A stretch of DNA of 64,000 nucleotides from NCBI GenBank assembly GCA_020633955.1, contig JACKCP010000006.1, forward strand, positions 34,404 to 98,403, read 5' to 3'. This stretch comes from Desulfobacteraceae bacterium. GTDB lineage: Bacteria > Desulfobacterota > Desulfobacteria > Desulfobacterales > JACKCP01. The notes below the pieces were generated by a model that worked only from the letters and a program-made list of their open reading frames with translations, was not told the DNA's origin and made no database searches. How positions within the stretch are numbered: the first letter of the stretch is position 1; each line of letters starts with the position of its first letter. This document shows, piece after piece, positions 14,108-64,000 of the stretch. The position numbers were made by a program, and so were the translations under genes.

Positions 14108-14159
14108 TCAAGACATTTTTATAAGATTAAATTGTTATTGCCTAAATAAATATGTAATT

Positions 14160-14202
14160 GTATCAGACAAAATTATTGTATGTCTGATACAATTAATTTT
14201 TT
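14160..14202 (+). terminator. Rho-independent terminator after the giant kinase gene, possibly bidirectional
   Basis: 10-bp perfect stem gtatcagaca / tgtctgatac with an 11-nt loop, followed by aattaatttttt. It lies between convergent genes. Confidence 0.6.
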
Positions 14203-14216
14203 CAATTACTTACTTT

Positions 14217-15155
14217 TTAATTGTCTTTTTTAATTTTATAAAAAACACCTCTCTCAAGCTCCTCAGCTTCAACTTTTCCCTGATTAACAAGAACATCAAG
14301 ATATTTACCAATATCGTTTCTGTGAAGACCCAGTATTTCAGTTAAATCCTCAATTGTACACGGTCTTCTAAAAATCATTCCATAAACGGCCTCTTCCCTG
14401 TCTTCCCTGTATGAGGCAATGTTTTTCCTTTGAATACTTTTAGAAATTATCTGTGTGTTTTTAAAATCAAGGTCTTTTTTTATTTTAATAAGTTCTGCTT
14501 CGGAGGCAGCAGTAAGTCCTGGCTGGGCACCTGGTCTGTCAAGGGAGTTTAAAAGCAAAAGATCTGGATTTATCTGTTGCACAGCTTTTTTTAATTTTAA
14601 AATATCATCTTGAGAATCATTGAAGCCTGGAAGAATAAAAACTTCAAGATCAAACCTGTTTTTAAATTCCTTTTTAAAATCACAAAGACCTTTGATATAA
14701 TTTTCAAGTGTTATTTCCTTGCAGGGCCTGTTTATCCTCAAAAAAGACTTTTCATCTGCACTGTCAAAAGAAGGCATCACAAGATCAGCCTTTAAAAGCT
14801 CTTTTCTAAGATTTGGATCATTAAAAAGAGTTCCGTTTGTTAAAACGCATACACTGACATCAAAATTTGATTTAATAAAATCAAGCACCTCTCCAATCTT
14901 AGAATTAAGACATGGCTCTCCTGAACCTGAAAAAGTAACAAAATCAGGCTTGGGATTTTTTTTAAAATAATCTTTAAGCTCCTCTTTTACTTCATCTGCA
15001 GGAACGTATTCTTTTCTTATGGCTGTAAGATCTGTTGTTTTCCCGCATTCACAATAAACACAGTCAAGTGAGCAGGTTTTGTGAGTAACAAGATCAACGC
15101 CAAGTGAAACCCCGAGCCTTCTTGAAGGAACAGGACCAAATATATATTTATACAT
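14217..15155 (-). CDS. Radical SAM protein (COG0731-like) with C-terminal winged-helix-like tail
   Basis: CSLDCVYCECG is a CxxxCxxC cluster motif. I place the start at the ATG at 15155 (MYKYIFGPVPSRRLG), preceded by GGGAGAG 5 nt upstream. The longer track ORF (to 15200) runs into a repeat element. Confidence 0.8.
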   Translation of the reverse strand: MYKYIFGPVPSRRLGVSLGVDLVTHKTCSLDCVYCECGKTTDLTAIRKEYVPADEVKEELKDYFKKNPKPDFVTFSGSGEPCLNSKIGEVLDFIKSNFDVSVCVLTNGTLFNDPNLRKELLKADLVMPSFDSADEKSFLRINRPCKEITLENYIKGLCDFKKEFKNRFDLEVFILPGFNDSQDDILKLKKAVQQINPDLLLLNSLDRPGAQPGLTAASEAELIKIKKDLDFKNTQIISKSIQRKNIASYREDREEAVYGMIFRRPCTIEDLTEILGLHRNDIGKYLDVLVNQGKVEAEELERGVFYKIKKDN

Positions 15156-33348: not shown

Positions 33349-34833
33349 GTGAAAAAAACAACAGGAATCATATATTCAATTCTGATTTGTTTATTTTTTC
33401 CGTTGTATGTTTTTTCAGGAGAAAAAACACCTGTTTATATTGAAAAGTTTAAAATTCATTCTTCTGATAAGAATGATGAATATATTTCAGAGGGTATCAA
33501 TTCTGTTCTTACGGGATTGATATCCCCCATAAACGGGATAAAAATAAGCGAAGAATATAAAAATGAGGGTTTTATAATTTCAGGAAGCATTGTAATAATA
33601 GACAACTCTTCCATTACATCGGCATCTTTAAAATACAATAAGCAAATTCTGGAGTCATTTAACAAAAAAAACGAAAAAAAATCTGATATTTTAAATAATA
33701 TCAATGATTTTGCTTTAATATGCAAAAAAATAATCGAAAATAAAGCCGTTAATCAAAAACCTCAGATGCCTTTAAATGAAATTAAACCTTCATATAATGA
33801 AACCCAGATGGAAATACTTTTTGTAAGCAATCCAATTACAGAAGAGATTAAAAGTATTTCATGTATTGATATAAACAATGATAAAAAAAAAGAGTTAGCC
33901 TGGATTACAGAAAAAAAACTCACAATTTCTTCCTTTTTGAACAATGAACTTGATGTGATTTCTTCAGTTGATATCCCAACTGAACTAACTCCTCTTTCAC
34001 TGGAGTCCCTGAAAATCCGCGGAACTGAAATGCTGATTGCAAACCTGTTTGATGATAAGGCAAAAAACTTCAAAGCAAGACTTTATTATTTTGATGACAA
34101 ATCAAAAATGCTTATGGAAGATAAAAGCTTTCCAGACAATTATTTTTACAAATCTTCATATTCAGTTTCCGGTGAAAAATTCATAATTGCCAGAAAAGGT
34201 GATAATTTCAAAACAAGCCTTTTCAGAGGGAATATCAAGATACTTGATTCAAAAGATTTCAGCTTTAAGGACATGGAAATTCAAAAAGAGTTTGAATTTT
34301 TTCCCTCACTAGTAACAGGCAATTATACAAAAAATGATGGAAAAGAATGGGTAAGCCTTGATTCAAAAGGTTCAATAACAATTTTTACAAGTAATTTTGA
34401 TAAGGTTTTTGAAACTGATTCAGCCTTTGGCGGTTCGGTTACTTATGCAAATTACGAAACCAAGGGAAGAGATGAAATTGATTCAAGATATTTTTTCCCA
34501 ACCAGATTAATTCCTGTTCTTATGGGAAATGGAAAAACCATGCTTTTGACCATAAAAAACAAAGATGGAGGAAGCAGACTGCTCCAACGGCTAAGATTTT
34601 TTAAGGAAGGTTCAATCAGCGGTCTTATGTGGGATAAAATTTCATTTGAAGAATTTTTTTCATCACGAATATTCAAAGGATGGATATCTGATTTCCAGAT
34701 CTGTGATATTGATATGGACGGCAGAAAAGAAATAATTATTGCAAACCCCCAAAAAGCAAAGAGTTTTACTAAAAATCCTGAAACCAGAATTATTATTATC
34801 CCCTTTGAAAAAAGCCTTTCAGATAATAAGTAA
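33349..34833 (+). CDS. Secreted or membrane-anchored hypothetical protein with FG-GAP/VCBS-like motif
   Basis: I place the start at the GTG at 33349 (VKKTTGIIYSILICLFFPLYVFSG, signal-like), 1 nt after the iorB stop. The track ORF start at 33283 overlaps iorB. The Ca-binding-like motif CDIDMDGRKEIIIAN lies near the C-terminus. Confidence 0.6.
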   Translation: MKKTTGIIYSILICLFFPLYVFSGEKTPVYIEKFKIHSSDKNDEYISEGINSVLTGLISPINGIKISEEYKNEGFIISGSIVIIDNSSITSASLKYNKQILESFNKKNEKKSDILNNINDFALICKKIIENKAVNQKPQMPLNEIKPSYNETQMEILFVSNPITEEIKSISCIDINNDKKKELAWITEKKLTISSFLNNELDVISSVDIPTELTPLSLESLKIRGTEMLIANLFDDKAKNFKARLYYFDDKSKMLMEDKSFPDNYFYKSSYSVSGEKFIIARKGDNFKTSLFRGNIKILDSKDFSFKDMEIQKEFEFFPSLVTGNYTKNDGKEWVSLDSKGSITIFTSNFDKVFETDSAFGGSVTYANYETKGRDEIDSRYFFPTRLIPVLMGNGKTMLLTIKNKDGGSRLLQRLRFFKEGSISGLMWDKISFEEFFSSRIFKGWISDFQICDIDMDGRKEIIIANPQKAKSFTKNPETRIIIIPFEKSLSDNK

Positions 34834-49088: not shown

Positions 49089-50258
49089 TTAAATCATATT
49101 TTCAGAAATAATATCAATTGTATGACAAATTCTGTTTTTTCCCCCTGCAGATCTTTCTAGCTGCAAAATACAGGCAGGACAACCTGTTAAAAGAGTTTCC
49201 CCTGATTTTAAATTCAGTTCTTCACACTTCAGGTTAAGAATTTTCTTTGAAACTCCAGGGTGATCAAGACTGAAACTACCTCCAAATCCACAGCAGGAAT
49301 CAAGTCTTGAACTTTCATCAAGCTCTAGTCTTAAAATATCTTTCAAGATAAAATCCGCATCTTTCTTACCACCTATAGATTGCAGGTGGCAGGGAAGGTG
49401 CCATTTGCCCTTAAAATCTGAAGAAAGATTAATTTCAAAGTCTTTTGCTTTAAGCTGCTGGGCTGCGAATTGATGAAAATCAAGAATATCAAACCTGGTA
49501 TTTATTTCCTTTCCTGATTTTGAAAAAAAGGGCCAGATTTTTTTGAGAGTTGAAATACATGTGGGACATCCGGAAACAATAATATCTGAGTCAATATTTA
49601 CAAACTTTTCATAAAGCTTTTCACTTGAAGCCATAAATCCTTTTTCATCACCAGAAGACAAAAAAGGAAGACCGCAGCACTCTCCTGAAACAACAACAGG
49701 GTCAAACCCAATTTTTTTAAAAAAACTCAGGGCATTTTCGGTTGTCTGAGGAAAAAATCTGTCAAAGAGGCAGCCTGTAAAAAAGACAAGCTTTTTTTCA
49801 TATGATTTGCAATGCCTGTAATTCTTTTTAAACTCTACTTGGCGTTTTTTGAAAAAACTGAAAAGAGAAGGAAATTTTATAAAAACCCTAATCAGAAACT
49901 TTTTTATAAAAGATTTTTTATCAAATTCATGCATTAAATTTCTTGCTCTTAAAAACAAGGAAACAGTATCAATCCCAGTTGGACATGCATTAGAGCATCT
50001 TCCGCACAAAAGACAAAATCTTAAATGATGTTCTATTAAAGAAGAATCAAAAAGAAAATCGTTTTTAAGCCCTCTTAAAAGAGCAAGTTTCCCTCTTGCA
50101 GTATGCTGCTCAAGTCCTGTCTGTCTGAATACAGGACATACAGACTGGCATTTTCCGCATTTGCGGCATGATTCCGCTGCTGAAAAAATTTCTTCAAACT
50201 CTAACAATGAGTTCTTTATTCTATATTTTTTATCATTTTTTAAAAAATTAATTTTCAT
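49089..50258 (-). CDS. (Fe-S)-binding CCG-domain protein (GlcF / HdrD / LutA-like)
   Basis: Two ferredoxin motifs (CRKCGKCQSVCP and CLLCGRCSNACP) and two CCG motifs (GECCGLPF and DSCCGFGG). Confidence 0.82.
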   Translation of the reverse strand: MKINFLKNDKKYRIKNSLLEFEEIFSAAESCRKCGKCQSVCPVFRQTGLEQHTARGKLALLRGLKNDFLFDSSLIEHHLRFCLLCGRCSNACPTGIDTVSLFLRARNLMHEFDKKSFIKKFLIRVFIKFPSLFSFFKKRQVEFKKNYRHCKSYEKKLVFFTGCLFDRFFPQTTENALSFFKKIGFDPVVVSGECCGLPFLSSGDEKGFMASSEKLYEKFVNIDSDIIVSGCPTCISTLKKIWPFFSKSGKEINTRFDILDFHQFAAQQLKAKDFEINLSSDFKGKWHLPCHLQSIGGKKDADFILKDILRLELDESSRLDSCCGFGGSFSLDHPGVSKKILNLKCEELNLKSGETLLTGCPACILQLERSAGGKNRICHTIDIISENMI

Positions 50259-50272
50259 TTAAAAAGCCAGAA

Positions 50273-51172
50273 CTAATCCTCAAAAGGTTTGTTTTCTTTT
50301 AAGACGCTAACAATAAATTTAATTTTTTCATCAAAAAATTTTTTTTCAACTGAAAAAGCACCCGCGCCCTTATGGCCCCCTCCATTATGTTTTGAAAGAA
50401 GTTTCCCGATGTTTACATTGCAGGTTTTATTAAAAATTGAATGGCCTATGCTTACAATTACTTTTTCAGGATTATCATCTGCATACCTGATTTTAACACT
50501 TACATTTGTCTTTGGAAACATGGAATAAATCAAGAACCTGTTCCCAGAAGGTGCTTTTGTTTCAAATGGTCTCAAATCCAAAATGGAAACATTTTCATCA
50601 ATAATTGTATTTTCATTTAAAATGTTTTTCCATTTGATATTCTCCTCAATGACCTTATTACACCGTTTCTCAACATCTGTGTCTTTCATTATTTCATTAA
50701 TATCTTTTGTTCGAAGAAGATTTATAAGTTTTTCCCAGTAAGGTACATCTTCAAACTGTCTGTTTTTTATTGTCATTGAAAGAAGAACGTATGGATATTT
50801 TTCAGGGAAATTTACTTCATCAATTGAAAGGTCTGCCGAATCAATTTTATCAGTATTTATAATAAGCTCTTTGAACCTGTCTTTAAAAATATCTGAATAA
50901 TAACCATAAATTACCCCGGCAGCCGAAGGCGCAATTTCATGCCGTCCTTCAAACTCTTTTACAGCAGTATTTGACACATGATGGTCAAACCACATTGATG
51001 CATTTTCATGGTATGGGAGGTTAGCAAGGATATCGCCTTTTTTTATATCGCATTCATTATTTTGAATCTGGTTAGGTTCAACCCAGTATACATCCTGCCT
51101 TATATCCAATGCTTCATACAATAAAACAGCACAGACAATTCCATCGAGATCTGGTCTTGTTACAATTCTCAT
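50273..51172 (-). CDS. DHH-superfamily phosphoesterase (COG2404 / NrnB-like)
   Basis: N-terminal TRPDLDGIVCAVLL, then WFDHHVS, then C-terminal NGGGHKGAGAF. Confidence 0.7.
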   Translation of the reverse strand: MRIVTRPDLDGIVCAVLLYEALDIRQDVYWVEPNQIQNNECDIKKGDILANLPYHENASMWFDHHVSNTAVKEFEGRHEIAPSAAGVIYGYYSDIFKDRFKELIINTDKIDSADLSIDEVNFPEKYPYVLLSMTIKNRQFEDVPYWEKLINLLRTKDINEIMKDTDVEKRCNKVIEENIKWKNILNENTIIDENVSILDLRPFETKAPSGNRFLIYSMFPKTNVSVKIRYADDNPEKVIVSIGHSIFNKTCNVNIGKLLSKHNGGGHKGAGAFSVEKKFFDEKIKFIVSVLKENKPFED

Positions 51173-51357
51173 TTTTGTCCTCCAGTCTATATATCAAAAT
51201 TTTTTAATTTATATTATTTTAAACCATCAAACAAGGTTATATTCTTATTGTTTTTGTTGAATTTACCAGTTTTGTTGTTAATATCTTTACTAGATTATAA
51301 AATTAAATTTAAAAATTAATAATACAAGAGTCTAACAGACCAGAAAAAGAGAGAAAA

Positions 51358-52320
51358 ATGAAAAAAATTATCCGGGACCCAAAGCTTTGCGAACCAGCTA
51401 AAGACTCACTTGAAGAATATAAAAAAAAACTACATCATATTACCGAAACAATAATTGAATCGTGTTTTGACAAGGATTCATTTACTCATATAAATAATGA
51501 GCCTATCCCTTCAAGGGCTGAGATTGTCAACATTATTAATGAATTTATTAAAATTCTTTTCCCCGGGTATTTTTCAAAACAAAAAATTGAACAATACAAT
51601 CTCAAGTATAAAATCGGTTTAAGTGTTTCTAATTTATTCCCCCGCCTTGCAGAACAGATAATAAAAAGCTTTCGCCATGAATGTTTCAGATATGACAAAC
51701 CTTGTGAAGTGTGTATTAACAAAGGATATGAATCAGCCCTTTGCCTGTTTGAAAAAATACCTGAATTAAGAAAAATACTTGCAACCGATGTCAAGGCAAC
51801 ATTTGACGGAGATCCCGCAGCGAAAAACTATGATGAAATAATTTTTTCCTATCCAGGAATATTTGCAATTACGGTATACAGAATTGCCCATGAACTTTTT
51901 AAAATGGAAGTTCCCCTTATTCCAAGAATAATGACAGAATATGCACACAGCGCCACAGGAATAGATATACACCCGGGTGCAAATATTGATGAAAGGTTTG
52001 CAATTGATCACGGAACAGGTGTTGTAATAGGCGAAACAACAGATATCGGTAAAAATGTCAGACTTTATCAGGGAGTAACCCTTGGTGCTCTCTCACTTCC
52101 AAAAGACGCAGGAGAAAGATTAAAGGGAGTTAAAAGACATCCGACACTTGAAGATGATGTAATTGTTTATTCAGGTACAACAATTCTTGGTGGAAATACT
52201 GTTATCGGCAAAAGGGCCGTAATAGGTGGTAACGTGTGGCTTACAAAATCTGTTCCTCCGGATACAATGGTTTTGCTTGAGGAGCCAAAACTTAATTACA
52301 AACAAAAACACCAGAGCTGA
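51358..52320 (+). CDS. cysE: Serine O-acetyltransferase (long form)
   Basis: Hexapeptide-repeat region GIDIHPGANIDERFAIDHGTGVVIGETTDIGKNVRLYQGVTLG with an N-terminal helical SATase domain. Confidence 0.85.
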   Translation: MKKIIRDPKLCEPAKDSLEEYKKKLHHITETIIESCFDKDSFTHINNEPIPSRAEIVNIINEFIKILFPGYFSKQKIEQYNLKYKIGLSVSNLFPRLAEQIIKSFRHECFRYDKPCEVCINKGYESALCLFEKIPELRKILATDVKATFDGDPAAKNYDEIIFSYPGIFAITVYRIAHELFKMEVPLIPRIMTEYAHSATGIDIHPGANIDERFAIDHGTGVVIGETTDIGKNVRLYQGVTLGALSLPKDAGERLKGVKRHPTLEDDVIVYSGTTILGGNTVIGKRAVIGGNVWLTKSVPPDTMVLLEEPKLNYKQKHQS

Positions 52321-52324
52321 ATTT

Positions 52325-53692
52325 ATGAATGTATTTGAAAAAAAAATTAAACTTAATTTCAGTTCCAGTGATGTTTTCAAATTCCATGAAAACCCAGGAG
52401 CTCTTAAAAGACTTTCGCCTCCATGGCAGAAAATTTCTGTTAAACTCCATAAAGGCGGAATTAAAAAAGGTGCAAAAGTCAAAATGCACCTTTATGACCC
52501 TTTTAAAATAACCTGGAAGGCTGTACACACTGAATATGAAAAAAACAATTATTTTGAGGATATCCAGACTTTTGGTCCCTTTTCAAAGTGGAAGCACAAG
52601 CATATTTTTAAAGAAGATGGAAAAGGTTTGTGCGAAATGACAGATAAAATTGAATTTAAACTTTTTTTTCATTTTTTAACCTTTCCCTTATTTAAAAATC
52701 TTTTATTAAAAAAACTTAATTCAATTTTTAAGTTCAGACATAAGATTTTACAAAGAGACCTGGAAATAAACTCAAAATTTAAAGAAAAAAAAACAATTCT
52801 TATAACAGGATCAGGTGGAGTTCTTGGAAATCTTTTAATTCCAAGGCTTACAACAGCAGGACATGAGGTAAAAAAACTTGTAAGAAGACTTCCTAAAAAT
52901 GAAAATGAATTCTACTGGAATCCAGATAAAAAAATAATAGACAAAAAGGCCTTTTTAAATACAGATGTTGTAATAAATCTTTCAGGAGAACCCATTGGAG
53001 AAGGGTTATGGACAAAAAAGAAAAAAGAAAAAATTATTTCAAGCAGAAAAAACACAGCCTCTCTTCTTGCAGAAACAATAAACGACCTTAAAAATCCCCC
53101 CAAACTTTTTATCTCTTCTTCTGCAACAGGTTTCTACGGAAACAGGGGAAATGAAAGACTAAACGAGGATTCAAAAAAAGGAAATCTCTTTATTTCTGAG
53201 GTTTGTAAAATATGGGAAGACTCTGCTCTTTTTTGTACAAACAAAAAAACAAGGGTAGTTATTTTAAGAACAGGAGTTGTTCTAACTCCTGAAGGAGGAG
53301 CACTTCCAATTATTTTAAAAGGGTTTTTCACAGGAACAGCAGCAGTTCCAGGAAGTGGTAACCAGTATGTAAGCTGGATTTCACATGAGGACTGGATAAA
53401 TGGAGTATACAATATAATTTTTAATAAAAATATTAAGGGATTTGTAAATCTCTGTTCAAATAACCCTGTTACTTTCAGTCAGCTTATGTCTGATATTTCA
53501 AATTCAGTCAAACTTCCATTTTATTTTAAAATTCCATCAGTCATAATAAAACTGTTTATTGGCCAGAAAGGATATGAAACAGTTTTATGCGGTGCAAAAG
53601 TTTTTCCAGACAAACTTCTTGCAAATAATTTTAAATTTTTCCATAACTCTCCTAGAGAAGCTTTTGACGAAATGCTTGGAAAGGACAGCTAA
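52325..53692 (+). CDS. SRPBCC-domain / TIGR01777 (YfcH-like) NAD-dependent epimerase-family fusion protein
   Basis: I place the start at the ATG at 52325 (MNVFEKKIKLNF); the track ORF start at 52226 overlaps cysE. The Rossmann motif is ILITGSGGVLGNLL, with a C-terminal DUF1731-like end. Confidence 0.75.
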   Translation: MNVFEKKIKLNFSSSDVFKFHENPGALKRLSPPWQKISVKLHKGGIKKGAKVKMHLYDPFKITWKAVHTEYEKNNYFEDIQTFGPFSKWKHKHIFKEDGKGLCEMTDKIEFKLFFHFLTFPLFKNLLLKKLNSIFKFRHKILQRDLEINSKFKEKKTILITGSGGVLGNLLIPRLTTAGHEVKKLVRRLPKNENEFYWNPDKKIIDKKAFLNTDVVINLSGEPIGEGLWTKKKKEKIISSRKNTASLLAETINDLKNPPKLFISSSATGFYGNRGNERLNEDSKKGNLFISEVCKIWEDSALFCTNKKTRVVILRTGVVLTPEGGALPIILKGFFTGTAAVPGSGNQYVSWISHEDWINGVYNIIFNKNIKGFVNLCSNNPVTFSQLMSDISNSVKLPFYFKIPSVIIKLFIGQKGYETVLCGAKVFPDKLLANNFKFFHNSPREAFDEMLGKDS

Positions 53693-54796
53693 ATGAAATA
53701 TTGGGATAAAATTTTTCTTGCTCTTCTTATGTGGACGGCCTTTGCCTTTGGATTTAGCGACCATATTTTACCACAGATTAATGGTCTTCACTTTGATCGC
53801 CTCCATATTTTTCTTTTTAATTTATGTGCCGGTGGAACAATTATCTATTCATACACATTGAATAAAACAATATTTTCAAAACCAGGAATGCTTTTTATAT
53901 CTGTTTCACTTATTTTTGCTTTTGCTGCATTTACAGAGCTTTATATTCTGGCAATAAGCTGCGCTTTTTTTCTTTCTTTTACAACAGAGCTTGCAAGATC
54001 AAAAAGGTTTGGTTTTTTCCCCTGGATGTTCTTTGACAACAGAATGATAGTACATAAAAAATTCCATAATGCTTCTATGCTCTGCCTCTCGCTTGGTCTT
54101 TTAATTTCAGCACTTGTTATGATCAATAATGAATACCTTCACATGGTCCAAATGAAAAAGCTTGAGCTTAATACTTTTTTCCTGGGTTTTTCATTTCCCC
54201 TGTCTCTTATAACAATGAGCGTAATGTTCAAGCTTACCGGAGACAACAGAATCTATCGAACAAGAGTATTAAAAAACATTGGGTTCTGGACTGTAAACCT
54301 TGGAGTAATTATATTCTTTATTTTTATTCTTTTTGAACTTATGACGCTACAGCTTATTATATCAGTAATTTTATTTTTTGCAGTTATTCTGATTTTCTAT
54401 GTTTTTCTTACAGACAAGTTCAACAAGCAGCAAAGAACCTTTCTTGTGTCAGGAATGTGTTTTCTCCTTTTCACAGGAATAAGCGGAATAGCATATATTG
54501 TTCTTGAAATGACTCCATACTACACTCCTGAAGCAGGAGAAATCCTTTTAAGAATGCATTCCTTTACATCTGTATACGGGTGGAACTTAAGCGGACTTGC
54601 TGTTCTTATCAGATTTGAGGATTTTCCAATCGAACTTCACTCAAAAAAATTCATTGCACTTCACTGGCTGACATCTCTTATTTTTGCACCTCTTGGTTCA
54701 ATTTCGGCATTATCGGCTCTTTTAGCTGTTTTGTCCTATGCAATAATCATTAAATGGATCTTTTTCAGTAACTCTAGAAAAAAGGAGCTTGCATAG
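53693..54796 (+). CDS. Polytopic membrane protein of unknown function (367 aa)
   Basis: The ATG directly follows the upstream TAA (TAAATG). There are about 9-10 hydrophobic segments and no recognisable motif. Confidence 0.6.
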   Translation: MKYWDKIFLALLMWTAFAFGFSDHILPQINGLHFDRLHIFLFNLCAGGTIIYSYTLNKTIFSKPGMLFISVSLIFAFAAFTELYILAISCAFFLSFTTELARSKRFGFFPWMFFDNRMIVHKKFHNASMLCLSLGLLISALVMINNEYLHMVQMKKLELNTFFLGFSFPLSLITMSVMFKLTGDNRIYRTRVLKNIGFWTVNLGVIIFFIFILFELMTLQLIISVILFFAVILIFYVFLTDKFNKQQRTFLVSGMCFLLFTGISGIAYIVLEMTPYYTPEAGEILLRMHSFTSVYGWNLSGLAVLIRFEDFPIELHSKKFIALHWLTSLIFAPLGSISALSALLAVLSYAIIIKWIFFSNSRKKELA

Positions 54797-54825
54797 TTAT
54801 TTATGGATAAACTGGATCTTGTGTT

Positions 54826-54897
54826 CATTTTTGAACCAGATTGAAAATTAAATCTTAAAAACACTTAAGTTTAAAAAGATTAAATTTTTCAATTAAA
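54826..54897. repeat. Family B-like palindromic core, copy B5 (degenerate), between convergent genes
   Basis: gattgaaaattaaatctt...aagattaaatttttcaat forms inverted arms related to the B core GATTCAAAATTTAATC. Confidence 0.4.
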
Positions 54898-54909
54898 CTG
54901 AAGAAATAA

Positions 54910-55776
54910 TTATAGTTTTGCGTCAGTCACAGGAGCAGTATCATCTATATTAAAGATCATATCAAACCCGTCTTCAATGAAAATTTCATTGTGTATTCCA
55001 AGCCTTAAGGCAATCTGCCAGATAAGATTCTTTTTTTCAGAGATTTTATCTGGGTTTGAAAAACTGACACGCCCTCCCTGGATCATCAATGTTTCAATAT
55101 TATTATTTTTTAAAAAATCTTTTGTTTCAAGTGCCTGCCGGTAAGCCTTGTGATAAATTATAAACAGTTTTTTTAGATACAAAACAAAATCTGAGTCACT
55201 AATATTAAAGCTTGCCAGTATATTTATAAAAAAATTAAATTCTTTTTCGGAAAATAAAAAAGGAAGTACTGACTTTTCAAGATAACCAGTTAAAATTTTT
55301 TCTTTTTTACCCTGAAGGTTATTTACATTTTTCCAGAGAACAGATGCAACTATTTCTTTTTCATTATCATTTAACAAATTCACTGTACTTAAAACATTAG
55401 TGTTAAGTTTTTTAGAGAAATCGAGTTTTTCTAAAAAAAACAAAATCAATTTTTTATCTGCAAGTATACTATCAGTCAGCCCTTTATAATTAATATTAAT
55501 TTTACTAATTCTCCGGCAAACTGAATCTAAGTCAAACTCCTTGTTTTCACACTGAATTTCAATCCAAATCAATGAAAATCTTTTTCTGGTTTCAAAATCA
55601 GGTGTAAAAAGAAAAAAGTTAAGTTCATCAGAAAATTCACAGGACGAATCTGAAATAACTTTTTTCAGGTCATAAAAACCCAAATCAATTCCAAGGTTAC
55701 CAGCATATTCAAAAAAATTATCTTCAATAAGAAAACCTTTTTCAAATTCATTTATTATCTTTTCATTAATATCCAA
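54910..55776 (-). CDS. Hypothetical protein (288 aa), no recognisable motif
   Basis: Uninterrupted, very AT-rich ORF, divergent from the P-loop NTPase gene. Confidence 0.5.
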   Translation of the reverse strand: MDINEKIINEFEKGFLIEDNFFEYAGNLGIDLGFYDLKKVISDSSCEFSDELNFFLFTPDFETRKRFSLIWIEIQCENKEFDLDSVCRRISKININYKGLTDSILADKKLILFFLEKLDFSKKLNTNVLSTVNLLNDNEKEIVASVLWKNVNNLQGKKEKILTGYLEKSVLPFLFSEKEFNFFINILASFNISDSDFVLYLKKLFIIYHKAYRQALETKDFLKNNNIETLMIQGGRVSFSNPDKISEKKNLIWQIALRLGIHNEIFIEDGFDMIFNIDDTAPVTDAKL

Positions 55777-55897
55777 GATTTACTCCCGCAAAAATTTACC
55801 AATTACATATCTTTACAAAAATTAAATTTATCACTAATCTCTCATATTATATTTAAGAAGTGAATATTTATTATTTTTACAAATTAAGGCTAAAAAA

Positions 55898-57775
55898 TTG
55901 AATAGCACAACCTTTAACAACCCGTTTTTGATATCAAGGGTAGACAATCCCTTTCAAAACCATCCAGATATTAAATCCATTCATGAAAATGAATTCAAAA
56001 CTCTTTGTCAGGCAATAAGTGAAATTAAAAAAGACACAAACTCACAAAGCAGAGCAATTACAATTATCGGTGCTCCAGGCTGCGGAAAAACACATCTTGC
56101 CATGAGACTTGCCAATGAAATTCTATTTTCAAACAGGCTTTTATTCATAAGACAGCCAAACAACAGGGATTCTGTTTATCTGCACATTTACACAAGAATT
56201 CTTGAATCAATGGTCGAAAATGTGCCTGGCACTCCATATTCACAGCTTGCCTATCTCCTTGGAAAAAGTTTTTCTGCAATTATTATTAATCAGATAAAAA
56301 ATAAAGAAAACCTGAGCTTGAAGGATAAAAGCATCCTTGAAATCCTTCAGGCTGACCCCATGAATATTTATAAAAAAATTGGTGGAGAAGGTACTGAAAC
56401 AAGAAGAAGAAACTGGAAATATATTGAAAATATAACTCTTCAATGGTGGGAATCAAATTACGGACTTGGCGGACATTCCAAAGACATTTTAAAAGGTTTT
56501 ATAAAATACTGCTCATATACAGACCCTAAAAGAAAACACCTGATATACAGATGGCTTAATTTTTTGGATATTTCAGAGCAGGAAGCCGGACTTACAGGTC
56601 TTATGCCCCATAAAGAAAATGATATGCACGAAGAGTTTGCACTTGATGCAATGATTGTAATTTCAAGGCTTTCCCTTGCAGATGAGCCTCTTGTTATAAT
56701 TTTTGACCAGCTTGAAGGCCTCAAGTATAATGAAGATCTTCTTTTTAAATTTTTTGAATCAGTAAAAGAACTTTTCACTCATCTTCCCAATTCACTTTTT
56801 ATTTTTAATCTTTTTTCAGACAGGTGGGAAAATTGGCAAAAAATTCTTGACCCTTCAATAACTGACAGGCTTTCCCAGTCTGTTATTCATTTACAAGCTC
56901 CTGATTTCACAAAAAAAATCCAGATTCTTGAAATCAGAGCACAGGAAGCTGGCTTTTCCCTTGAAAATTTTTTCTCTGAAGATGAGTTAAGGGTTATAAC
57001 CAATAATTATTCAATAAGAAGTATGCTTGTATCTGCATCAAACCATTTCAGACACAAAACAGGCAGTCTTCCGCTGGCAGATACATACGAATCATTTGAA
57101 GAAAAAATTGAGAACCAGATTAAAGAACTAAAGCAGGAAATCAGTCAGCTTAAAAAATATCTTAATATCAGCCTTCCAACTTTTCGTGAAGTAATAGAAT
57201 CTGAAAGTATAGATTTTTTCATTGAAGAAAAAAAACAGGAACTTTTAAAGGAAAAGACAGAAAAAAGAGTTTATTCTGAAACAGACGATGCAGGAAAAAT
57301 CCTTGTGATTATAAACCTGTTTAAAGGCAAAATCATTACAGAAACCGGAAGGCTCAAGGCAGGTGCAAGAAAACTTCCAGAGCATGTTCTCATTAAAGGA
57401 TCAAGAAATGACATAATTGCAGGCTTTTTACATATGTCTGGAAACAGTCTTACAGGAAGGCTTAAAAACCTTTATACACTTTGTATTAATAATCCTTTAA
57501 CAGATTTTTACATTTTCAGAAATTTTTCATCATCTCCAGTTAAGTCAAAAATTGCAAAGGAAACCCTTGCAAAACTTAAGGAACTCAATAATTTCAAATT
57601 CAGGCTGATTTCAGAAAAAGAAAGACTTGAATTTGAAATAATATACGAGTTAATAACTGCCATTCAAAATAAAGATATTGAGGGAGATCCAATATTTGCA
57701 TTAAAAATTACCAGAAATAAATTTAGTTCATTATTTTTGTTTCAGCTTCTTGAATCAGCAGAAATTGCATTGTAG
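55898..57775 (+). CDS. P-loop NTPase (AAA+/STAND-like) of unknown function, 625 aa
   Basis: Walker A is ITIIGAPGCGKTHLAMRLA and Walker B-like is PLVIIFDQLEG. The centre is a coiled coil (EEKIENQIKELKQEISQLKK). The C-terminal ~200 aa are unassigned. The start codon is TTG. Confidence 0.7.
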   Translation: MNSTTFNNPFLISRVDNPFQNHPDIKSIHENEFKTLCQAISEIKKDTNSQSRAITIIGAPGCGKTHLAMRLANEILFSNRLLFIRQPNNRDSVYLHIYTRILESMVENVPGTPYSQLAYLLGKSFSAIIINQIKNKENLSLKDKSILEILQADPMNIYKKIGGEGTETRRRNWKYIENITLQWWESNYGLGGHSKDILKGFIKYCSYTDPKRKHLIYRWLNFLDISEQEAGLTGLMPHKENDMHEEFALDAMIVISRLSLADEPLVIIFDQLEGLKYNEDLLFKFFESVKELFTHLPNSLFIFNLFSDRWENWQKILDPSITDRLSQSVIHLQAPDFTKKIQILEIRAQEAGFSLENFFSEDELRVITNNYSIRSMLVSASNHFRHKTGSLPLADTYESFEEKIENQIKELKQEISQLKKYLNISLPTFREVIESESIDFFIEEKKQELLKEKTEKRVYSETDDAGKILVIINLFKGKIITETGRLKAGARKLPEHVLIKGSRNDIIAGFLHMSGNSLTGRLKNLYTLCINNPLTDFYIFRNFSSSPVKSKIAKETLAKLKELNNFKFRLISEKERLEFEIIYELITAIQNKDIEGDPIFALKITRNKFSSLFLFQLLESAEIAL

Positions 57776-57782
57776 GTATAAA

Positions 57783-58517
57783 ATGAATATTTATGAAAAT
57801 CTATTCACAGCCTTTAAAGGCCTTGCACAAGAAAAAACAATTGAAAAGATAGTTACCGGAAATTCATACACAGCTGTAAAACTGAAAGATTCAAGCATTG
57901 GTATTTCATATACCATGGGAAGTTTTGTATCAAAAAAATCAAATTATTATTCAGAAATAACAACTCTTGATATTTTATCTCTCATTACTGGAAACAGCTC
58001 TTATGATAAAACTGTTTCAATGGCTCTTATAAATGCTCTTAACTTTACCGAATGCTTAAAAATGCCTGAAGACAATAAAAATAGTGGTTTATTAAATCAA
58101 ATTGTATTTAATGAAAATACAAAAGTATCAATGGCTGGCTTTATTAAACCTCTGGCAGAAAAAATTATGTGCAAAGCCAAAAATATTGATGTCCTGGATT
58201 ACGGAAAAAATATTGGCTCAGAAAAGGATTTTTTTAGAAATCTAAAATCGGCTGATTATCTTATTCTTACTTCTACTTCTCTTTTAAACTCGAGTTTTCA
58301 AAAAATAATGGATGAATCAGGGGAAAATACTGAAATTTTTCTTACAGGTCCTACTACCCCCATGGCAAAAGAAGCTTTTAAGGAAACCAGGGTTAGCTTT
58401 CTTGCTGGCTCTCATTTTATTCCTCAATATGAAGAACAACTCATTGAAAATATTTCACTTGGATTCGGAACACCAGTTTTAAAAAAATTTCTAAGAAAAA
58501 TTTTTTTAAAACTATAA
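57783..58517 (+). CDS. DUF4213/DUF364-like (putative Rossmann-like chelatase fold) protein
   Basis: I place the start at the ATG at 57783 (MNIYENLF). GNSYTAVKLKDSSIGISYT matches the N-terminal pattern I recall for DUF4213, and the C-terminal half is Rossmann-like. Confidence 0.55.
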   Translation: MNIYENLFTAFKGLAQEKTIEKIVTGNSYTAVKLKDSSIGISYTMGSFVSKKSNYYSEITTLDILSLITGNSSYDKTVSMALINALNFTECLKMPEDNKNSGLLNQIVFNENTKVSMAGFIKPLAEKIMCKAKNIDVLDYGKNIGSEKDFFRNLKSADYLILTSTSLLNSSFQKIMDESGENTEIFLTGPTTPMAKEAFKETRVSFLAGSHFIPQYEEQLIENISLGFGTPVLKKFLRKIFLKL

Positions 58518-58520
58518 AAA

Positions 58521-59558
58521 TCAGTCAAGCCCGTATTTTTCGATTAGTTTTTTTCTTTCATATTTGATTTTTTCTGTTCTTTCAAATCTTTCAAGCTGAT
58601 TTTTAGTAAAAATCTGATTTTTTAAATTTGCGATTTCAATATCTTTTTCTTCTTTTGTAAGTGCCCCGTTTTCAAGAAGAACTTGTTTTTTTTCATTAAA
58701 ATCAGTTACTGCCTTATCATAAAGATTCATTTCGTCTTCAATATTTTTTCTTTTTTCAAGCATATCTTCAGTAAAATACTCTTTTTTCAGCTCTTGTTTC
58801 CTATATTCATATTGATCTTTATCTAATTCACTCATATCTTTTTGATTTATCAGAAGTGCTTCCATATATTTTTCATATGAAGACTTTATTTTTTCCTCCA
58901 AATTATATTTATCTTTTATTTCTTGTAAAAGTGCCTTTTTTTCATAAGCATAAAGATCTTTATCATGAATTACAGAATTTACTTCAATACGATATTTTTT
59001 AATTTTTGCCTCATCCTTATATAAAGCATTATATAACTCTTCTCCAAGATATTCTTTTCTAAATTCTTCTACATAATCAATTCTTTCTAATATTTCATTT
59101 TTATTTACAGGCATTGGAAGAAGGCTTAGTTTAACAGAAAGCTCTTCACTGCATTTTACAAATTCACTGTAATTTGAAAAAATAAAATCGGCTGTATCTT
59201 TATCATAATTTTTTTCCAAATAATTATAAACATCTTCAAAATGGGAAGACATATTAATTGAATCCTTAAATTTTGCAGTAATGAGTTTAAAAAGTTCAAT
59301 TAAATTATCTGGTTCAATCAAACTGCTCTCATTTTTCTTATTTATTCTTTTATTATTCATACTGCTTATTATTTTATTATTTTGATTATCAGCATTTTTT
59401 TTTGCAGAATTTAGTTCTTCATCATTAATAATTTGAGCTGATTTGGTTCTCTTAATTTCAAAATCATTATTGAAATTGTAAAATCCAGCAAAATAAATAA
59501 AAAACAGCAGAATTAAAATAAAACCTGCTGAAAATGAAAAAAAAGTTTTAATTCCCAT
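58521..59558 (-). CDS. Lipase-specific foldase (Lif / lipase chaperone family)
   Basis: N-terminal TM anchor, then a long helical body. EEFRKEYLGEELYNALYKDEAKIKKYRIEVNSVIHDKDLYAYEKKALLQEIKDKY aligns by eye with the Pseudomonas LipH region ALRARIFSNEAHVAFFADEETYNQFTLERLAIRQDGKLSAEEKAAAIDRLRASL. It lies immediately downstream of a family-I lipase gene. Confidence 0.7.
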   Translation of the reverse strand: MGIKTFFSFSAGFILILLFFIYFAGFYNFNNDFEIKRTKSAQIINDEELNSAKKNADNQNNKIISSMNNKRINKKNESSLIEPDNLIELFKLITAKFKDSINMSSHFEDVYNYLEKNYDKDTADFIFSNYSEFVKCSEELSVKLSLLPMPVNKNEILERIDYVEEFRKEYLGEELYNALYKDEAKIKKYRIEVNSVIHDKDLYAYEKKALLQEIKDKYNLEEKIKSSYEKYMEALLINQKDMSELDKDQYEYRKQELKKEYFTEDMLEKRKNIEDEMNLYDKAVTDFNEKKQVLLENGALTKEEKDIEIANLKNQIFTKNQLERFERTEKIKYERKKLIEKYGLD

Positions 59559-59570
59559 CTAAAACTCTCC

Positions 59571-59605
59571 CTCAAACCAAAAAAGGGCCCTGAAAAAGGC
59601 CCTTT
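59571..59605 (-). terminator. Intercistronic Rho-independent terminator/attenuator hairpin between the lipase and foldase genes
   Basis: 8-bp GC-rich stem aaagggcc / ggcccttt with an 8-nt loop. On the minus strand it is followed by TTTTTTGGTTT. The foldase RBS (GGGAGAG) follows directly. Confidence 0.7.
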
Positions 59606-59629
59606 AATTTTGATTAAGACTTTCCAAGT

Positions 59630-60514
59630 CTAAAAACCTCTGTTCTTTAAATCACTGACTATACCAACATAAAATGCAGGAGCATCAAATCCAGGAGTAA
59701 TACCAAACATCTGATCAACAATATTAAGATGATCAACTCCTGCACTGTACCATGCGCCGCTTTTTACACCTTTAAAATTTCCCCATTTTGCACTTTCAAC
59801 TCCAACAAGACCGTCATTTGCTCCTTCCTTTACAAGCATAATAAGCCAGGTGGGCTGTAGAATTAAACTGGGACAACTCCATTTTGCCTTTGCAGCATAA
59901 CTTTGGTAATAAATACCATCTATGTCAGGTGTGTTTGGGTTAAAAACGTTTTTCATGTAATCCGTTGTAAGATCAATTGCATTTTGCAGACTATCTGGAT
60001 TTGTATCACCGAACACCCAGGTATAAATAAAATCAAAAGCTCCGCCTACATCATCATGGAGTGAATCAGGAAGTGTATCAATTACCATATCCGCGATGGA
60101 ACTTCCCCTGTGTGGACCAGCGATGCTAGTGTAACTTGCAACATATGGTCCAAGTCCAAGGTTTGAAATCGCATACCTTGAGTAAAGAGTTCCATGGGAA
60201 TGTCCAATGATATTTACCTTTTCTTTTCCTGTTGCAGCAAGAATGTCTAAAACCTGTCTTTTGAAATCTTCTGCCTTTGCAATGGTTCCATCCATGCCGT
60301 TGACAGATGTTTTAAATACCGCAGCACCATTTTTTTCCAATTCATCATCAATGCTCCACCAATAATCAACAATTCCTAAAATTTCTGCACTTGCACCCAT
60401 GCCGTGCGCAAGAACAACAGGATATTTCGTAGAGGCGTCGCCAGCAAAAACATTATTTGATGAAAGAAGGCAAACTAAAAGACACAAACAAATTGAATTG
60501 AATAATTTTTTCAT
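59630..60514 (-). CDS. Secreted triacylglycerol lipase, bacterial family I.1/I.2-like
   Basis: I place the start at the ATG at 60514 (MKKLFNSICLCLLVCLLSSNNVFAG, a signal peptide), with GGAGA upstream. YPVVLAHGMGA is the oxyanion region and NIIGHSHGT is the GxSxG nucleophile elbow. ANDGLVGVES and GVDHLNIVDQ supply the Asp and His of the triad, as in Pseudomonas LipA. Confidence 0.85.
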   Translation of the reverse strand: MKKLFNSICLCLLVCLLSSNNVFAGDASTKYPVVLAHGMGASAEILGIVDYWWSIDDELEKNGAAVFKTSVNGMDGTIAKAEDFKRQVLDILAATGKEKVNIIGHSHGTLYSRYAISNLGLGPYVASYTSIAGPHRGSSIADMVIDTLPDSLHDDVGGAFDFIYTWVFGDTNPDSLQNAIDLTTDYMKNVFNPNTPDIDGIYYQSYAAKAKWSCPSLILQPTWLIMLVKEGANDGLVGVESAKWGNFKGVKSGAWYSAGVDHLNIVDQMFGITPGFDAPAFYVGIVSDLKNRGF

Positions 60515-60613
60515 TGCTTTTCTCCATAAAATTATCATTAACATAAACCACAAACACACAGATAAACACTGTTTACAGTGAGGCCAAAAAAAATAAGAAC
60601 TTTGTTTTTTCAA

Positions 60614-60642
60614 AATGTAACAAATTGATGCTTTAAGGTCAA
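60614..60642 (-). promoter_or_regulatory. Candidate sigma-70 promoter of the lipase operon
   Basis: The minus strand reads TTGACC (60642-60637) - 17 nt - TACATT (60619-60614), ~95 nt upstream of the lipase ATG. Confidence 0.3.
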
Positions 60643-60856
60643 CATTATATACTAAAACGAAATATATTTTCAGATCTGCAAGACAAAACATCGATAAAGT
60701 AATGGATAAAATTGGATTTATTATTCGTTTACGGAAATAATCATAATATAAATAAAGAACTCATAAAAATTTTTTTACCTCAGCCAAATATATTCTAAGT
60801 TTTATAAGAAAAAAACAGAGTCTTCAATAATTCAGCAGTTGATTTTAAATAGAATT

Positions 60857-60973
60857 GTAACTGTTAAGCTCCCAGGCAGGAGATAAAAAAACTATCTCCT
60901 GAAACCAGCTCAGAAAAAATACTACAGCCGTCACCAAAACACTTTTTTCTCAGTTTTTAAGCAGAATAGTTAC
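60857..60973 (+). mobile_element. Hairpin MITE family A, copy A7: left-arm deletion derivative (117 bp)
   Basis: gtaactgt is joined directly to taagctcccaggcaggagataaaaaaactatctcctg...ctcagtttttaagcagaatagttac. About 50 bp of the left arm is missing. The flanking 8-mers (atagaatt / aaataatt) match 6 of 8. Confidence 0.8.
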
Positions 60974-61000
60974 AAATAATTTAAAATAAAACACTTCTCT

Positions 61001-61038
61001 TAAAAATAAAAAACCCCTGAAGAAAAATCTTCAGGGGT
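61001..61038 (-). terminator. Rho-independent terminator of the rRNA operon
   Basis: 10-bp perfect stem acccctgaag / cttcaggggt with a 6-nt loop. On the minus strand it is followed by TTTTTATTTTA. It lies ~12 nt after the 5S 3' end. Confidence 0.85.
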
Positions 61039-61050
61039 TATATATTTTAT

Positions 61051-61165
61051 CCGGCAGCGTCCTACTCTCCCACACAGTCTACCATGCAGTACCATCGGCG
61101 ATGTAAGGCTTAACTTCCGTGTTCGGGATGGTTACGGGTGTGACCCTTACTCCATCGCCACCGAA
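61051..61165 (-). rRNA. rrf: 5S ribosomal RNA
   Basis: The reverse complement shows the conserved 5S core (...CCGAACACGGAAGTTAAGCC...GGTACTGCATGG...GGGAGAGTAGGACGCTGCCGG). It is ~115 nt long and lies downstream of the 23S. Confidence 0.93.
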
Positions 61166-61251
61166 TTTGTTAACTTACAATTCATAACGAGTCTTACTTC
61201 TACAACAGCTTCTTAACTTACGCAATTTATTTTTTATGACCATCAATATTG

Positions 61252-64000
<2,749 letters not shown>

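Follow-up and report, generated by a model that had tools for sequence, protein, structure and literature searches.

A single-gene, exonuclease-less member of a conserved AAA+ family with ORC/Cdc6-type motifs in a Desulfobacteraceae genome

ATPases of the ORC/Cdc6 clade are described as having an insert that follows strand 2 of the AAA+ core, together with a helical bundle and an arginine located at the base of strand 5 (PMC12839542). Among the bacterial members of the clade, BrxD is proposed to load or activate a partner helicase, BrxHI (PMC12839542). The gene considered here encodes a 625-amino-acid (aa) NTPase whose motifs are comparable to those of this clade. It lies on contig JACKCP010000006.1 of a Desulfobacteraceae bacterium (GCA_020633955.1). 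The window, that is, the whole stretch of DNA that was analysed, is 64,000 nucleotides (nt) long and corresponds to positions 34,404 to 98,403 of the contig on the forward strand; coordinates without a locus name are those of the window. The NTPase gene (55898-57775, plus strand, from the listing of open reading frames [ORFs]) stands between a 288-aa ORF, orf288, and a gene with DUF4213 and DUF364 domains. A preliminary description of the window proposed that these three genes form a conflict, defence or maintenance module. By gene order, the NTPase is a single-gene unit and the other two genes are unrelated neighbours. The NTPase is the exonuclease-less short form of a strongly conserved, uncharacterised AAA+ family.

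When one genome for each GTDB species (185,579 species genomes) is scanned with a pattern, 271 relatives of the NTPase are recovered. The best 80 of these relatives were used for the locus comparisons and give, with the window copy, 81 family ORFs and loci. A profile of the short form finds 155, 511 and 1223 clusters (50% identity) at E<=1e-30, 1e-10 and 1e-3, respectively. The hosts are Desulfobacterales, cable bacteria, Beggiatoaceae and Cyanobacteria, and there is a distant branch in the Planctomycetota. The window protein has 167 close homologs. It is 100% identical to an NCBI protein named 'exonuclease' from a Desulfobacteraceae bacterium metagenome-assembled genome (MAG) and 89% identical to a protein from a Desulforegulaceae MAG (locus L001). 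The ratio of nonsynonymous to synonymous substitution rates (dN/dS) between the NTPase gene and its L001 ortholog is 0.08. Two family alignments, one of 31 mixed (long and short) sequences and one of 35 short forms, contain 55-63 invariant columns, and identity between phyla is approximately 40%. No Pfam or NCBIfam model covers the family over its full length, and no structure has been solved outside an optional exonuclease domain. The family was not found in a 2020 eLife paper on STAND NTPases (PMC7159879), in a 2026 NAR domain-centric defence screen or by keyword searches.

Forty of the 81 family ORFs are short, as in the window, and the remaining 41 carry an N-terminal extension of 82-193 aa at the site of the exonuclease. 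Both the DxE and the HxAxxD motifs are present in 37 of the 41 long forms. At the N-terminus, the domain carried by the long forms matches PF00929 and, in the PDB, the exonuclease domain of PolC as well as ExoX, RNase T and epsilon, with 2p1j and 4fzx among the matched entries. The NCBI name 'exonuclease' comes from this DEDDh domain. For the window copy the name is wrong, because the domain is absent and no remnant of it lies upstream. The window NTPase has no PF00929 match and begins 7 residues ahead of the conserved N-terminal peptide described below.

In the neighbour-joining tree of the family, the clades follow taxonomy. The Desulfobacterales short forms are nearest the midpoint root, and Electrothrix has long forms. 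The Beggiatoaceae long forms and short forms make up separate clades. The Cyanobacteria have long forms and include a nested Xenococcaceae clade of short forms, which points to an independent loss of the exonuclease. The pair formed by the window copy and L001 is sister to a paralog clade that includes L002, a sequence from the same MAG as L001. Several Beggiatoaceae MAGs contain both a long and a short paralog (L021/L049, L022/L040, L026/L041 and L037/L045). It is possible that such co-resident paralogs form mixed assemblies or divide labour between them.

The AlphaFold2 (AF2) model of the NTPase, built with the family alignment, has a pLDDT of 86.5 and a pTM of 0.85. All of the following features are on the plus strand. 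Ahead of the AAA+ core is the N-terminal peptide NPFxxSRVDxPFQxHxD (residues 8-24; 55919-55969), which is a signature of the family. Residues N8, P9, F10, R14, V15, D16, P18, F19, Q20, H22 and D24 are invariant in the 35 short forms and nearly so in the 31 mixed sequences, and the Planctomycetota branch has DRVDTPW at this position. The strands of the AAA+ core are residues 52-57, 80-84, 265-269, 299-305 and 328-331 in the model. Walker A (GAPGCGKTH, residues 58-66; 56069-56095) follows the first strand. Its residues G58, G61, G63, K64 and H66 are invariant in both branches, and T65 is invariant in the family and nearly so across the branches. Walker B (LVIIFDQLEGL, residues 265-275; 56690-56722) contains D270, Gln271 at the usual position of the catalytic Glu, and Glu273 at +3. 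Residues F269, D270, Q271, L272, E273, G274 and L275 are invariant in the family. In the distant branch F269, D270, L272, E273 and G274 are invariant, and Q271 and L275 are nearly invariant. The preliminary description had recognised a Walker A and a Walker B-like motif, and both hold across the family, in which Walker A (consensus GxxGxGKTH) and the Walker B segment IIFDQLEGL (residues 267-275) are invariant.

An all-helical insert of approximately 155 aa (residues 106-262; 56213-56683) lies between core strands 2 and 3 of the model, where strand 2 (80-84) is followed by helices spanning 90-261 and then by strand 3 (265-269). Within the insert, Q116, W184, W219 and E245 are invariant, and W173 is invariant in one family alignment and nearly so in the other. 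Judged by the model, the insert appears to occupy the position of the HEH/ISM insert of the ORC/Cdc6 clade. Three further residues are candidates for standard AAA+ roles. Asn304 (56807-56809), at the C-terminal end of strand 4 (299-305) and nearly invariant, is the candidate sensor 1. Arg324 (56867-56869), just ahead of strand 5 (328-331), is the candidate arginine finger, and Arg374 (57017-57019), in the lid helix 373-387, is the candidate sensor 2; both arginines are invariant in both branches. If these roles are correct, the ORC/Cdc6-type motif set is complete, with K64/T65, D270/E273, R324 and R374 invariant, N304 nearly so, and a helical insert after strand 2.

The lid covers residues 337-387 of the model and contains Arg374. 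No winged helix follows the lid in the AF2 model. A low-confidence linker leads to a helical hairpin (residues 401-451; 57098-57250) made up of helices 401-422 and 429-451, which corresponds to the central coiled coil noted earlier and is followed by a linker of variable length. The hairpin region itself varies in length, with up to approximately 100 extra residues in cyanobacterial and Beggiatoaceae forms. The separate C-terminal domain that had been left unassigned is also present in the model, as an alpha/beta domain with five strands in the order alpha-beta-beta-beta-alpha-beta-alpha-beta-alpha (residues 461-620; 57278-57757). Modelled alone, this domain has a pLDDT of 93.4. Its invariant residues are G466, K467, P494, F510, R521, R541, N565 and R576. 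In Foldseek comparisons with the PDB, its matches are weak (E of 0.0096 or higher, TM 0.3-0.37) and include nucleases of the PD-(D/E)xK type (Nt.BspD6I, SfsA, EcoT38I, LmuA, Kpn2I, Mus81-Eme1 and Shedu), together with many APOBEC/AID deaminases. The apparent likeness of the modelled domain to the PD-(D/E)xK fold is a lead and not a result.

For the ATPase region, the best PDB folds are archaeal Orc1/Cdc6 and ORC subunits (2qby_A with E 9e-4 and probability 1.0; 1fnn, 2v1u and 7tjf). These matches are weak (E approximately 1e-3, TM 0.26-0.45). The AAA_16 score of the window protein is 27.0 bits (E 7e-6), which is under the gathering threshold of AAA_16 (PF13191, 32.6 bits), and three relatives score above it (P0012, 37.1; P0049, 34.8; P0193, 62.1). 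The family sits at the edge of the broad AAA_16 model. The earlier comparison with AAA_16/STAND NTPases is retained as AAA_16/STAND-ORC-like, with the AAA_16 score itself below threshold. Sub-threshold sequence matches to Hda, DnaA, IstB, Orc1, NACHT, nSTAND3/5, IetA and mad8 cover the P-loop only. No characterised housekeeping family is matched by the NTPase.

A second tier of relatives, mostly from the Planctomycetota, is 21-27% identical to the family and keeps the N-terminal motif, all of the ATPase motifs and the C-terminal domain. This distant branch includes P0204, P0207, P0221, P0193, P0229, P0183 and P0270-P0308. Many of its members are approximately 1100 aa long and have a C-terminal HerA/FtsK-type ATPase; the domains matched in these fusions are HerA/DUF87, FtsK_SpoIIIE and TrwB. 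Other appendages in the second tier are an SF1 helicase (AAA_12), a Topo-I zinc ribbon and an N-terminal Sigma54_DBD.

The immediate neighbours at the 80 loci are mixed and mostly housekeeping genes, such as polyunsaturated fatty acid and polyketide (PUFA/PKS) synthases, AdoMet decarboxylase, transporters and a ThiI-like enzyme. If a catch-all cluster of unrelated proteins of variable length is set aside, all-against-all clustering of 907 neighbouring ORFs shows no neighbour family in more than 7 of the 81 loci, and synteny is found within genera only. Some neighbours have DNA-processing functions. SbcD-SbcC in L001, an SbcD-like gene in L076/L078 and RadA in four Electrothrix-type loci are co-oriented with the family member. 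UvrD-like helicases, likewise co-oriented, are beside members in L002, L003 and L044, and a DnaE-like polymerase adjoins a distant relative. ThiI-like/NFACT-R proteins adjoin members in L002, L003 and L005.

When PADLOC-DB v2.0.0 was applied to the 139 immediate neighbours of family loci, solid hits were sporadic: L007 has PDC-S01, L046 has an NsnB/AriA-like ATPase and L044 has a helicase. No PglZ or BrxX was found among the 139. The mad8 model matches 6 neighbours and was rejected as a hidden partner; these are generic P-loop matches, and the model is non-specific because it also matches RadA and UvrD-like proteins. The mad3 model matches 4 neighbours (best E 5e-57) and was not retained as a partner either. 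The proteins that it matches were not identified among the 20 scanned individually, and no cluster is present in more than 7 of the 81 loci. The ThiI-like/NFACT-R proteins of L002, L003 and L005 are candidates for these matches. In L044 (9923-12843 of that locus, from a Campylobacteraceae MAG), a short form is followed by a co-oriented UvrD-like helicase (PADLOC 'Helicase', E 2e-114) and a DUF2290 protein. The helicase and the DUF2290 protein look like a separate candidate defence pair.

Family members are found on 8-9 cyanobacterial plasmids, and the four plasmid loci that were inspected all have defence-type neighbours. In p11801_1 of Synechococcus elongatus PCC 11801, parB-parA is divergent from Exo-AAA-ThsB_TIR-ThsA_Macro. 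The member at this locus (L081/L083, 627-6163 of the record) is an 810-aa long form, and the co-oriented ThsB_TIR and ThsA_Macro genes are Thoeris-like. Of the other three members, the one on a Tolypothrix plasmid stands beside co-oriented HerA-NurA genes, the one from Calothrix beside genes for a helicase and a PLD nuclease, and the one on a Nostoc plasmid (C057) beside NACHT, DUF262/DUF1524 (GmrSD-like) and HNH genes.

We lean towards reading the NTPase as a switch that binds DNA, is driven by ATP and recruits nucleases or motors, with the window protein as a stand-alone member of the family. The conserved module (N-terminal peptide, AAA+ core, insert, hairpin and C-terminal domain) would act as an ATP-dependent, oligomerising switch on DNA. 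A DNA substrate or structure would be recognised via the helical insert and the C-terminal domain, and binding and hydrolysis of ATP across subunit interfaces, with Arg324 as the finger, would drive assembly on the DNA. Once assembled, the switch would deliver or activate a DNA-processing enzyme. In approximately half of the family this enzyme would be the covalent DEDDh 3'-5' exonuclease, and in the distant relatives it would be the fused HerA/FtsK ATPase or SF1 helicase. The exonuclease-less forms would work with an enzyme in trans or by DNA binding alone. Conservation of the motifs and the low dN/dS suggest that the ATPase is active and under constraint. By analogy, the switch may parallel motor loading of the ORC/Cdc6/DnaC type and the action proposed for BrxD.

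Several observations weigh against this reading. The pointers to DNA binding are the fusions and neighbours alone. The C-terminal domain has no canonical catalytic motif in the alignment, including no (D/E)xK in its third strand, and Foldseek finds no confident structural match for it in the PDB. Within the 64-kb window, neither an exonuclease remnant nor a paralog of the NTPase was found, and no nuclease or motor gene is alongside the NTPase gene. The DNA-repair and defence neighbours are few, coming from 4-6 independent lineages, and no excess over chance is claimed for them. There is also the residue at the catalytic position. Every member has FDQLE in Walker B (residues 268-273; 56699-56716). 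In experiments, exchange of the catalytic Glu for Gln serves to trap AAA+ proteins with ATP bound. With Gln271 at this place in Walker B, hydrolysis may be slow or unconventional, and the sequence would allow the family to hydrolyse ATP slowly or via a shifted catalytic residue.

The biological role is the least certain step. A role in genome conflict is tentatively favoured, and housekeeping repair is given somewhat less credence. The lean towards conflict comes from the patchy distribution, the presence or absence of the gene among close relatives, paralogy, carriage on plasmids by defence genes and the modular appendages. It also comes from the company that the family keeps, since conflict proteins are known among other bacterial ATPases of the ORC/Cdc6 clade, namely BrxC, BrxD and DUF499 with its N-terminal HEPN (PMC12839542). 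A bolder and rather doubtful extension is that the family and its Planctomycetota sister branch form a previously undescribed single-protein DNA-surveillance system, in which an ORC-like loader would bring a nuclease or motor to foreign or aberrant DNA. Recognition in such a system would be via the private C-terminal domain and the helical insert. The enzyme would be supplied in cis (DEDDh exonuclease, HerA/FtsK or SF1 helicase) or in trans (SbcCD, UvrD-like or HerA-NurA), and the exonuclease-less window copy would be a trans-acting sensor. The hosts of the family are mainly bacteria that are large, filamentous or polyploid, namely Cyanobacteria, Beggiatoaceae, cable bacteria and Desulfobacterales.

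The alternative that survives best is that the NTPase is an accessory factor in chromosomal repair or replication, which for example loads or regulates nucleases and helicases at breaks or stalled forks and has no role in conflict with mobile elements. We consider this unlikely, though by no means negligible. A repair role is kept alive by slow evolution (dN/dS 0.08, strong purifying selection), by clades that follow taxonomy, by housekeeping contexts and by the absence of a PADLOC hit. Genus-level synteny is seen in Lyngbya/Capilliphycus, in Electrothrix and in a Desulfobacterales group. The radA, sbcDC and uvrD-like neighbours, as well as the dnaE-like gene by the distant relative, also speak for such a factor. 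Three of these points count directly against a defence role: the window NTPase has no PADLOC match, the chromosomal neighbours are mostly housekeeping genes, and the identity of approximately 40% between phyla goes with taxon-coherent clades. No phage homolog of the family was found, which counts against such a role as well. Against a housekeeping factor stands the patchy distribution, with 271 relatives among all the species genomes scanned and few lineages represented. The gene is present or absent at the same locus of equally related genomes, and paralogs multiply inside genomes. Plasmid members lie beside Thoeris-like, GmrSD-like, PLD and NACHT genes, and the appended nucleases, motors and helicases are exchanged like modules.

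That the family consists of replicon initiators or copy-number factors, with the chromosomal copies as relics of integrated elements, is very improbable: Orc1/Cdc6 and ORC are the best fold matches and the p11801_1 member divergently adjoins parA-parB, but that plasmid has its own, separate CyRepA1-family Rep gene, known cyanobacterial Reps are helicase-like and unrelated (PMC10899382), in the family no winged-helix DNA-binding domain follows the lid, the majority of members are on chromosomes, in ordinary surroundings that lack par, rep and integrase genes, and a fused 3'-5' exonuclease is not expected of an initiator.

The remaining alternative is the three-gene module itself, in which the 288-aa protein, the NTPase and the DUF364 protein would cooperate in a conflict, defence or maintenance role within an island. 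The arrangement of the genes is as it had been described. The 288-aa orf288 (54910-55776, minus strand) is divergent from the NTPase gene across a 121-base-pair (bp) intergenic region (55777-55897). The DUF4213/DUF364 gene (57783-58517, plus strand) has an ATG at 57783, whose first base is 8 nt beyond the end of the NTPase stop codon, and encodes 244 aa from this ATG; the ORF listing extends to a TTG at 57750, which gives 255 aa. In tblastn comparisons with ten window proteins of the region as queries, orf288 and the DUF364 gene accompany the NTPase in only 1 of the 80 other family loci. This is L001, the locus of the 89%-identical ortholog in the sister MAG, which repeats both the 121-bp divergent spacer and the 8-nt gap between the NTPase and DUF364 genes. 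Neither neighbour is present in the other 79 loci. The preliminary description had itself named such a failure to co-occur as grounds for rejecting the module.

Two further loci, L084 and L085, were reached via orf288 homologs, and the NTPase is missing from the same locus in both. In L084, the gene order CCG/Fer4-DHH-SAT-yfcH-memb367-orf288 is kept and is followed by a ferredoxin-type gene, with both the NTPase and the DUF364 gene missing. The flanking genes of L084 are 80-88% identical to their window counterparts, which makes this genome roughly as close as L001. In L085, orf288 is directly divergent from the DUF364 gene across 232 bp with no NTPase between them. Approximately 55791-55883 of the window is near-identical to L001 and aligns to the orf288-DUF364 spacer of L085 over 93 columns with approximately 78% identity. 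This homology indicates that the NTPase gene was inserted or deleted between the spacer region and the DUF364 gene. A 26-nt direct repeat (55846-55871 and 57769-57794) was considered as a target-site duplication and rejected, since the element is also present in L085, where the site is empty.

Three genomes whose relatedness is roughly equal carry different genes to the right of orf288. From the gene orders of L084 and L085, the region right of orf288 is a synteny breakpoint, and orf288 belongs to the block on its left. The spread of dN/dS values against L001 accords with this breakpoint (0.08 for the NTPase, 0.10 for memb367, 0.19 for the DUF364 gene and 0.24 for orf288). The module proposal can point to the conserved adjacency and spacing in L001, to a base composition that is somewhat richer in AT than the window and to the location at a breakpoint. 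It is undercut by the single co-occurrence among 80 loci, by orf288 without the NTPase or the DUF364 gene in L084, by the orf288-DUF364 pair without the NTPase in L085, by the unlike dN/dS values of the three genes and by the nature of both neighbours, which is described below. We regard it as highly improbable, and its removal eliminates a false lead, since there is no three-gene island module in the window.

The 288-aa protein has no match in Pfam, NCBIfam, PADLOC or the PDB, in line with the earlier remark that it lacks a recognisable motif. Its homologs number only 4 among 5.8 billion proteins (51-100% identity), and orf288 is an orphan restricted to its lineage. The gene goes with the conserved yfcH/membrane-protein block to its left rather than being a partner of the NTPase. 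The DUF4213/DUF364 assignment of the downstream gene is upheld, with both Pfam domains of the 255-aa protein above their gathering thresholds (DUF364, 81.8 bits, cutoff 23, 5e-23; DUF4213, 46.1 bits, cutoff 23.5, 6e-12). The protein also matches PDB 3npg, a DUF364 family protein (E 8e-6). The DUF364/DUF4213 (Dhaf4260-type) fold combines an enolase-N-like and a Rossmann-like domain (PMC2954201). The gene product has a metabolic-type enzyme fold and is not a conserved partner of the NTPase. It shares its two domains with the described DUF364/DUF4213 proteins, and its adjacency to the NTPase is confined to this lineage.

The context of the block was said to be island-like, and part of this holds, namely the synteny breakpoint. 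Island borders were sought at the block, and no genuine flanking repeats, tRNA gene or integrase were found. The repeat elements said to bracket it are not supported, because 50000-61300 holds only short, low-complexity, AT-rich chance matches. Promoter and terminator counts in the block are at chance level. The description of the block as extremely AT-rich is overstated. Its GC is 0.308, compared with a mean of 0.341 in 3.6-kb windows (standard deviation 0.015, n=287), and it ranks 14 of 287. The AT excess is due to orf288 (GC 0.279) and the DUF364 gene (0.297), and the NTPase gene (0.333) is typical of the window, whose overall GC is 0.340.

The lipase/foldase operon and the rrn operon adjoin the block where they had been placed. 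The lipase and lipase-chaperone genes (58521-60691, minus strand, from library matches) are followed by a 5S rRNA gene (61049-61165, minus strand) and a nearby 23S gene on the same strand. The lipase chaperone gene is the most AT-rich gene nearby (GC 0.243). Directly downstream of the 5S rRNA gene is a 21-nt inverted repeat (61003-61048; 90% complementary, 4-nt loop), which is probably the terminator of the rrn operon. At the equivalent position of the sister MAG L001, the lipase pair is missing and SbcD-SbcC is present instead. If anything here is a recent arrival beside the rrn operon, it is the lipase pair, given its absence in L001 and the low GC of the chaperone gene. The L001 locus continues as NTPase-DUF364-SbcD-SbcC (8001-15155 of that locus), co-oriented with gaps of 8, 39 and 10 nt, and this string is operon-like in appearance. 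SbcDC was not found anywhere in the 64-kb window.

Within the block left of orf288, a yfcH-like TIGR01777 oxidoreductase (253.6 bits; approximately 190 additional aa at the N-terminus) pairs with memb367, a 367-aa multi-pass membrane protein that has no family match. The pair is adjacent and co-oriented in four genomes (window 52226-54796, L001 4388-6954, L025 3462-5997 and L084 8884-11357). In L025 it is directly downstream of an NTPase family member. The longest ORF of the yfcH-like gene in the window starts from a GTG and overlaps the end of an upstream hexapeptide-transferase gene by 95 nt (52226-52320). The L084 ortholog is called at 457 aa, compared with 488 aa in the window, so the true start is probably further downstream.

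These comparisons delineate a sizeable, well-conserved AAA+ family, with 155 clusters at E<=1e-30, a number that rises to 1223 at E<=1e-3 when the distant branch is included. Its repeated fusion or adjacency with exonucleases, HerA/FtsK, SF1 helicases, SbcCD and HerA-NurA makes it a tractable candidate. The family could represent a new coupling of an ORC-like ATP switch to DNA degradation or translocation. The small-plasmid members in Synechococcus elongatus PCC 11801, which is culturable and genetically tractable, are a convenient test case.

Among described systems, the BREX-associated ATPases BrxC/DUF6079 and BrxD, together with DUF499, resemble the NTPase family in the N-terminal AAA+ core, where Walker A and B are accompanied by an insert that follows strand 2, by an arginine ahead of strand 5 and by a helical lid, and in the extra C-terminal domains and coiled-coil elements. 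N-terminal nuclease fusions occur on both sides, with HEPN in DUF499 and the DEDDh exonuclease in the long forms, and the helicase loading proposed for BrxD is paralleled by the helicase and HerA fusions and neighbours. Unlike BREX proteins, the NTPase family lacks the triad of wHTH, alpha+beta and wHTH domains, has no PglZ or methyltransferase nearby and is a single-gene unit. No sequence match to them is significant: DUF6079 scores 19.1 bits in one relative, over 36 residues of the P-loop, and PADLOC gives no BrxC, BrxD or PglY hit.

Archaeal and eukaryotic Orc1/Cdc6 initiators (such as 2qby, 1fnn and 2v1u) have the same order of AAA+ motifs and are the best structural match. They differ in three respects. 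The insert is approximately 155 aa in the NTPase and a short HEH in Orc1/Cdc6, the NTPase has Gln at the catalytic-Glu position of Walker B, and the C-terminal winged helix is replaced in the NTPase by the helical hairpin and a private alpha/beta domain. The resemblance to DnaA, DnaC and IstB suggested in the preliminary description does not extend beyond the P-loop segment (residues ~28-79), where matches of 16-26 bits are far under the NCBIfam cutoffs: Hda 25.7 bits (cutoff 194.8), DnaA 19.4 (343.9) and IS21 IstB 20.1 (200), with Pfam IstB_IS21 at 15.7 (24.1). The DnaQ-like DEDDh exonucleases (PolC domain, ExoX, RNase T and Pol III epsilon) are alike in the long forms only, and their domain is absent from the window protein.

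STAND NTPases (Avs/AVAST; nSTAND3/nSTAND5 and NACHT) share with the long forms a layout of effector, NTPase and C-terminal module. NACHT proteins have a DGxDE motif, of which the second acidic residue at +3 in the Walker B of the NTPase is reminiscent. Unlike STAND proteins, the NTPase model has no TPR, WD40 or other repeat sensors, and PADLOC gives no Avs hit. The window protein scores 21.6 bits for nSTAND3 (cutoff 27.2), 16.1 for nSTAND5 (34) and 15.6 for NACHT (26.7), with little matched beyond the P-loop; the weak Pfam matches in the family also include NPHP3_N. Such STAND systems are reported to be enriched in filamentous or large bacteria, a pattern that the NTPase family resembles (PMC7159879). 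The best PADLOC hits of the window NTPase are IetA (23 bits) and mad8 (22.5 bits), both P-loop only, and orf288 and the DUF364 gene have none, in agreement with the earlier statement that the NTPase fits no described defence system. The NTPase works most like the ORC/Cdc6-clade conflict ATPases and the effector-fused STAND NTPases, and it is a member of none of these groups.

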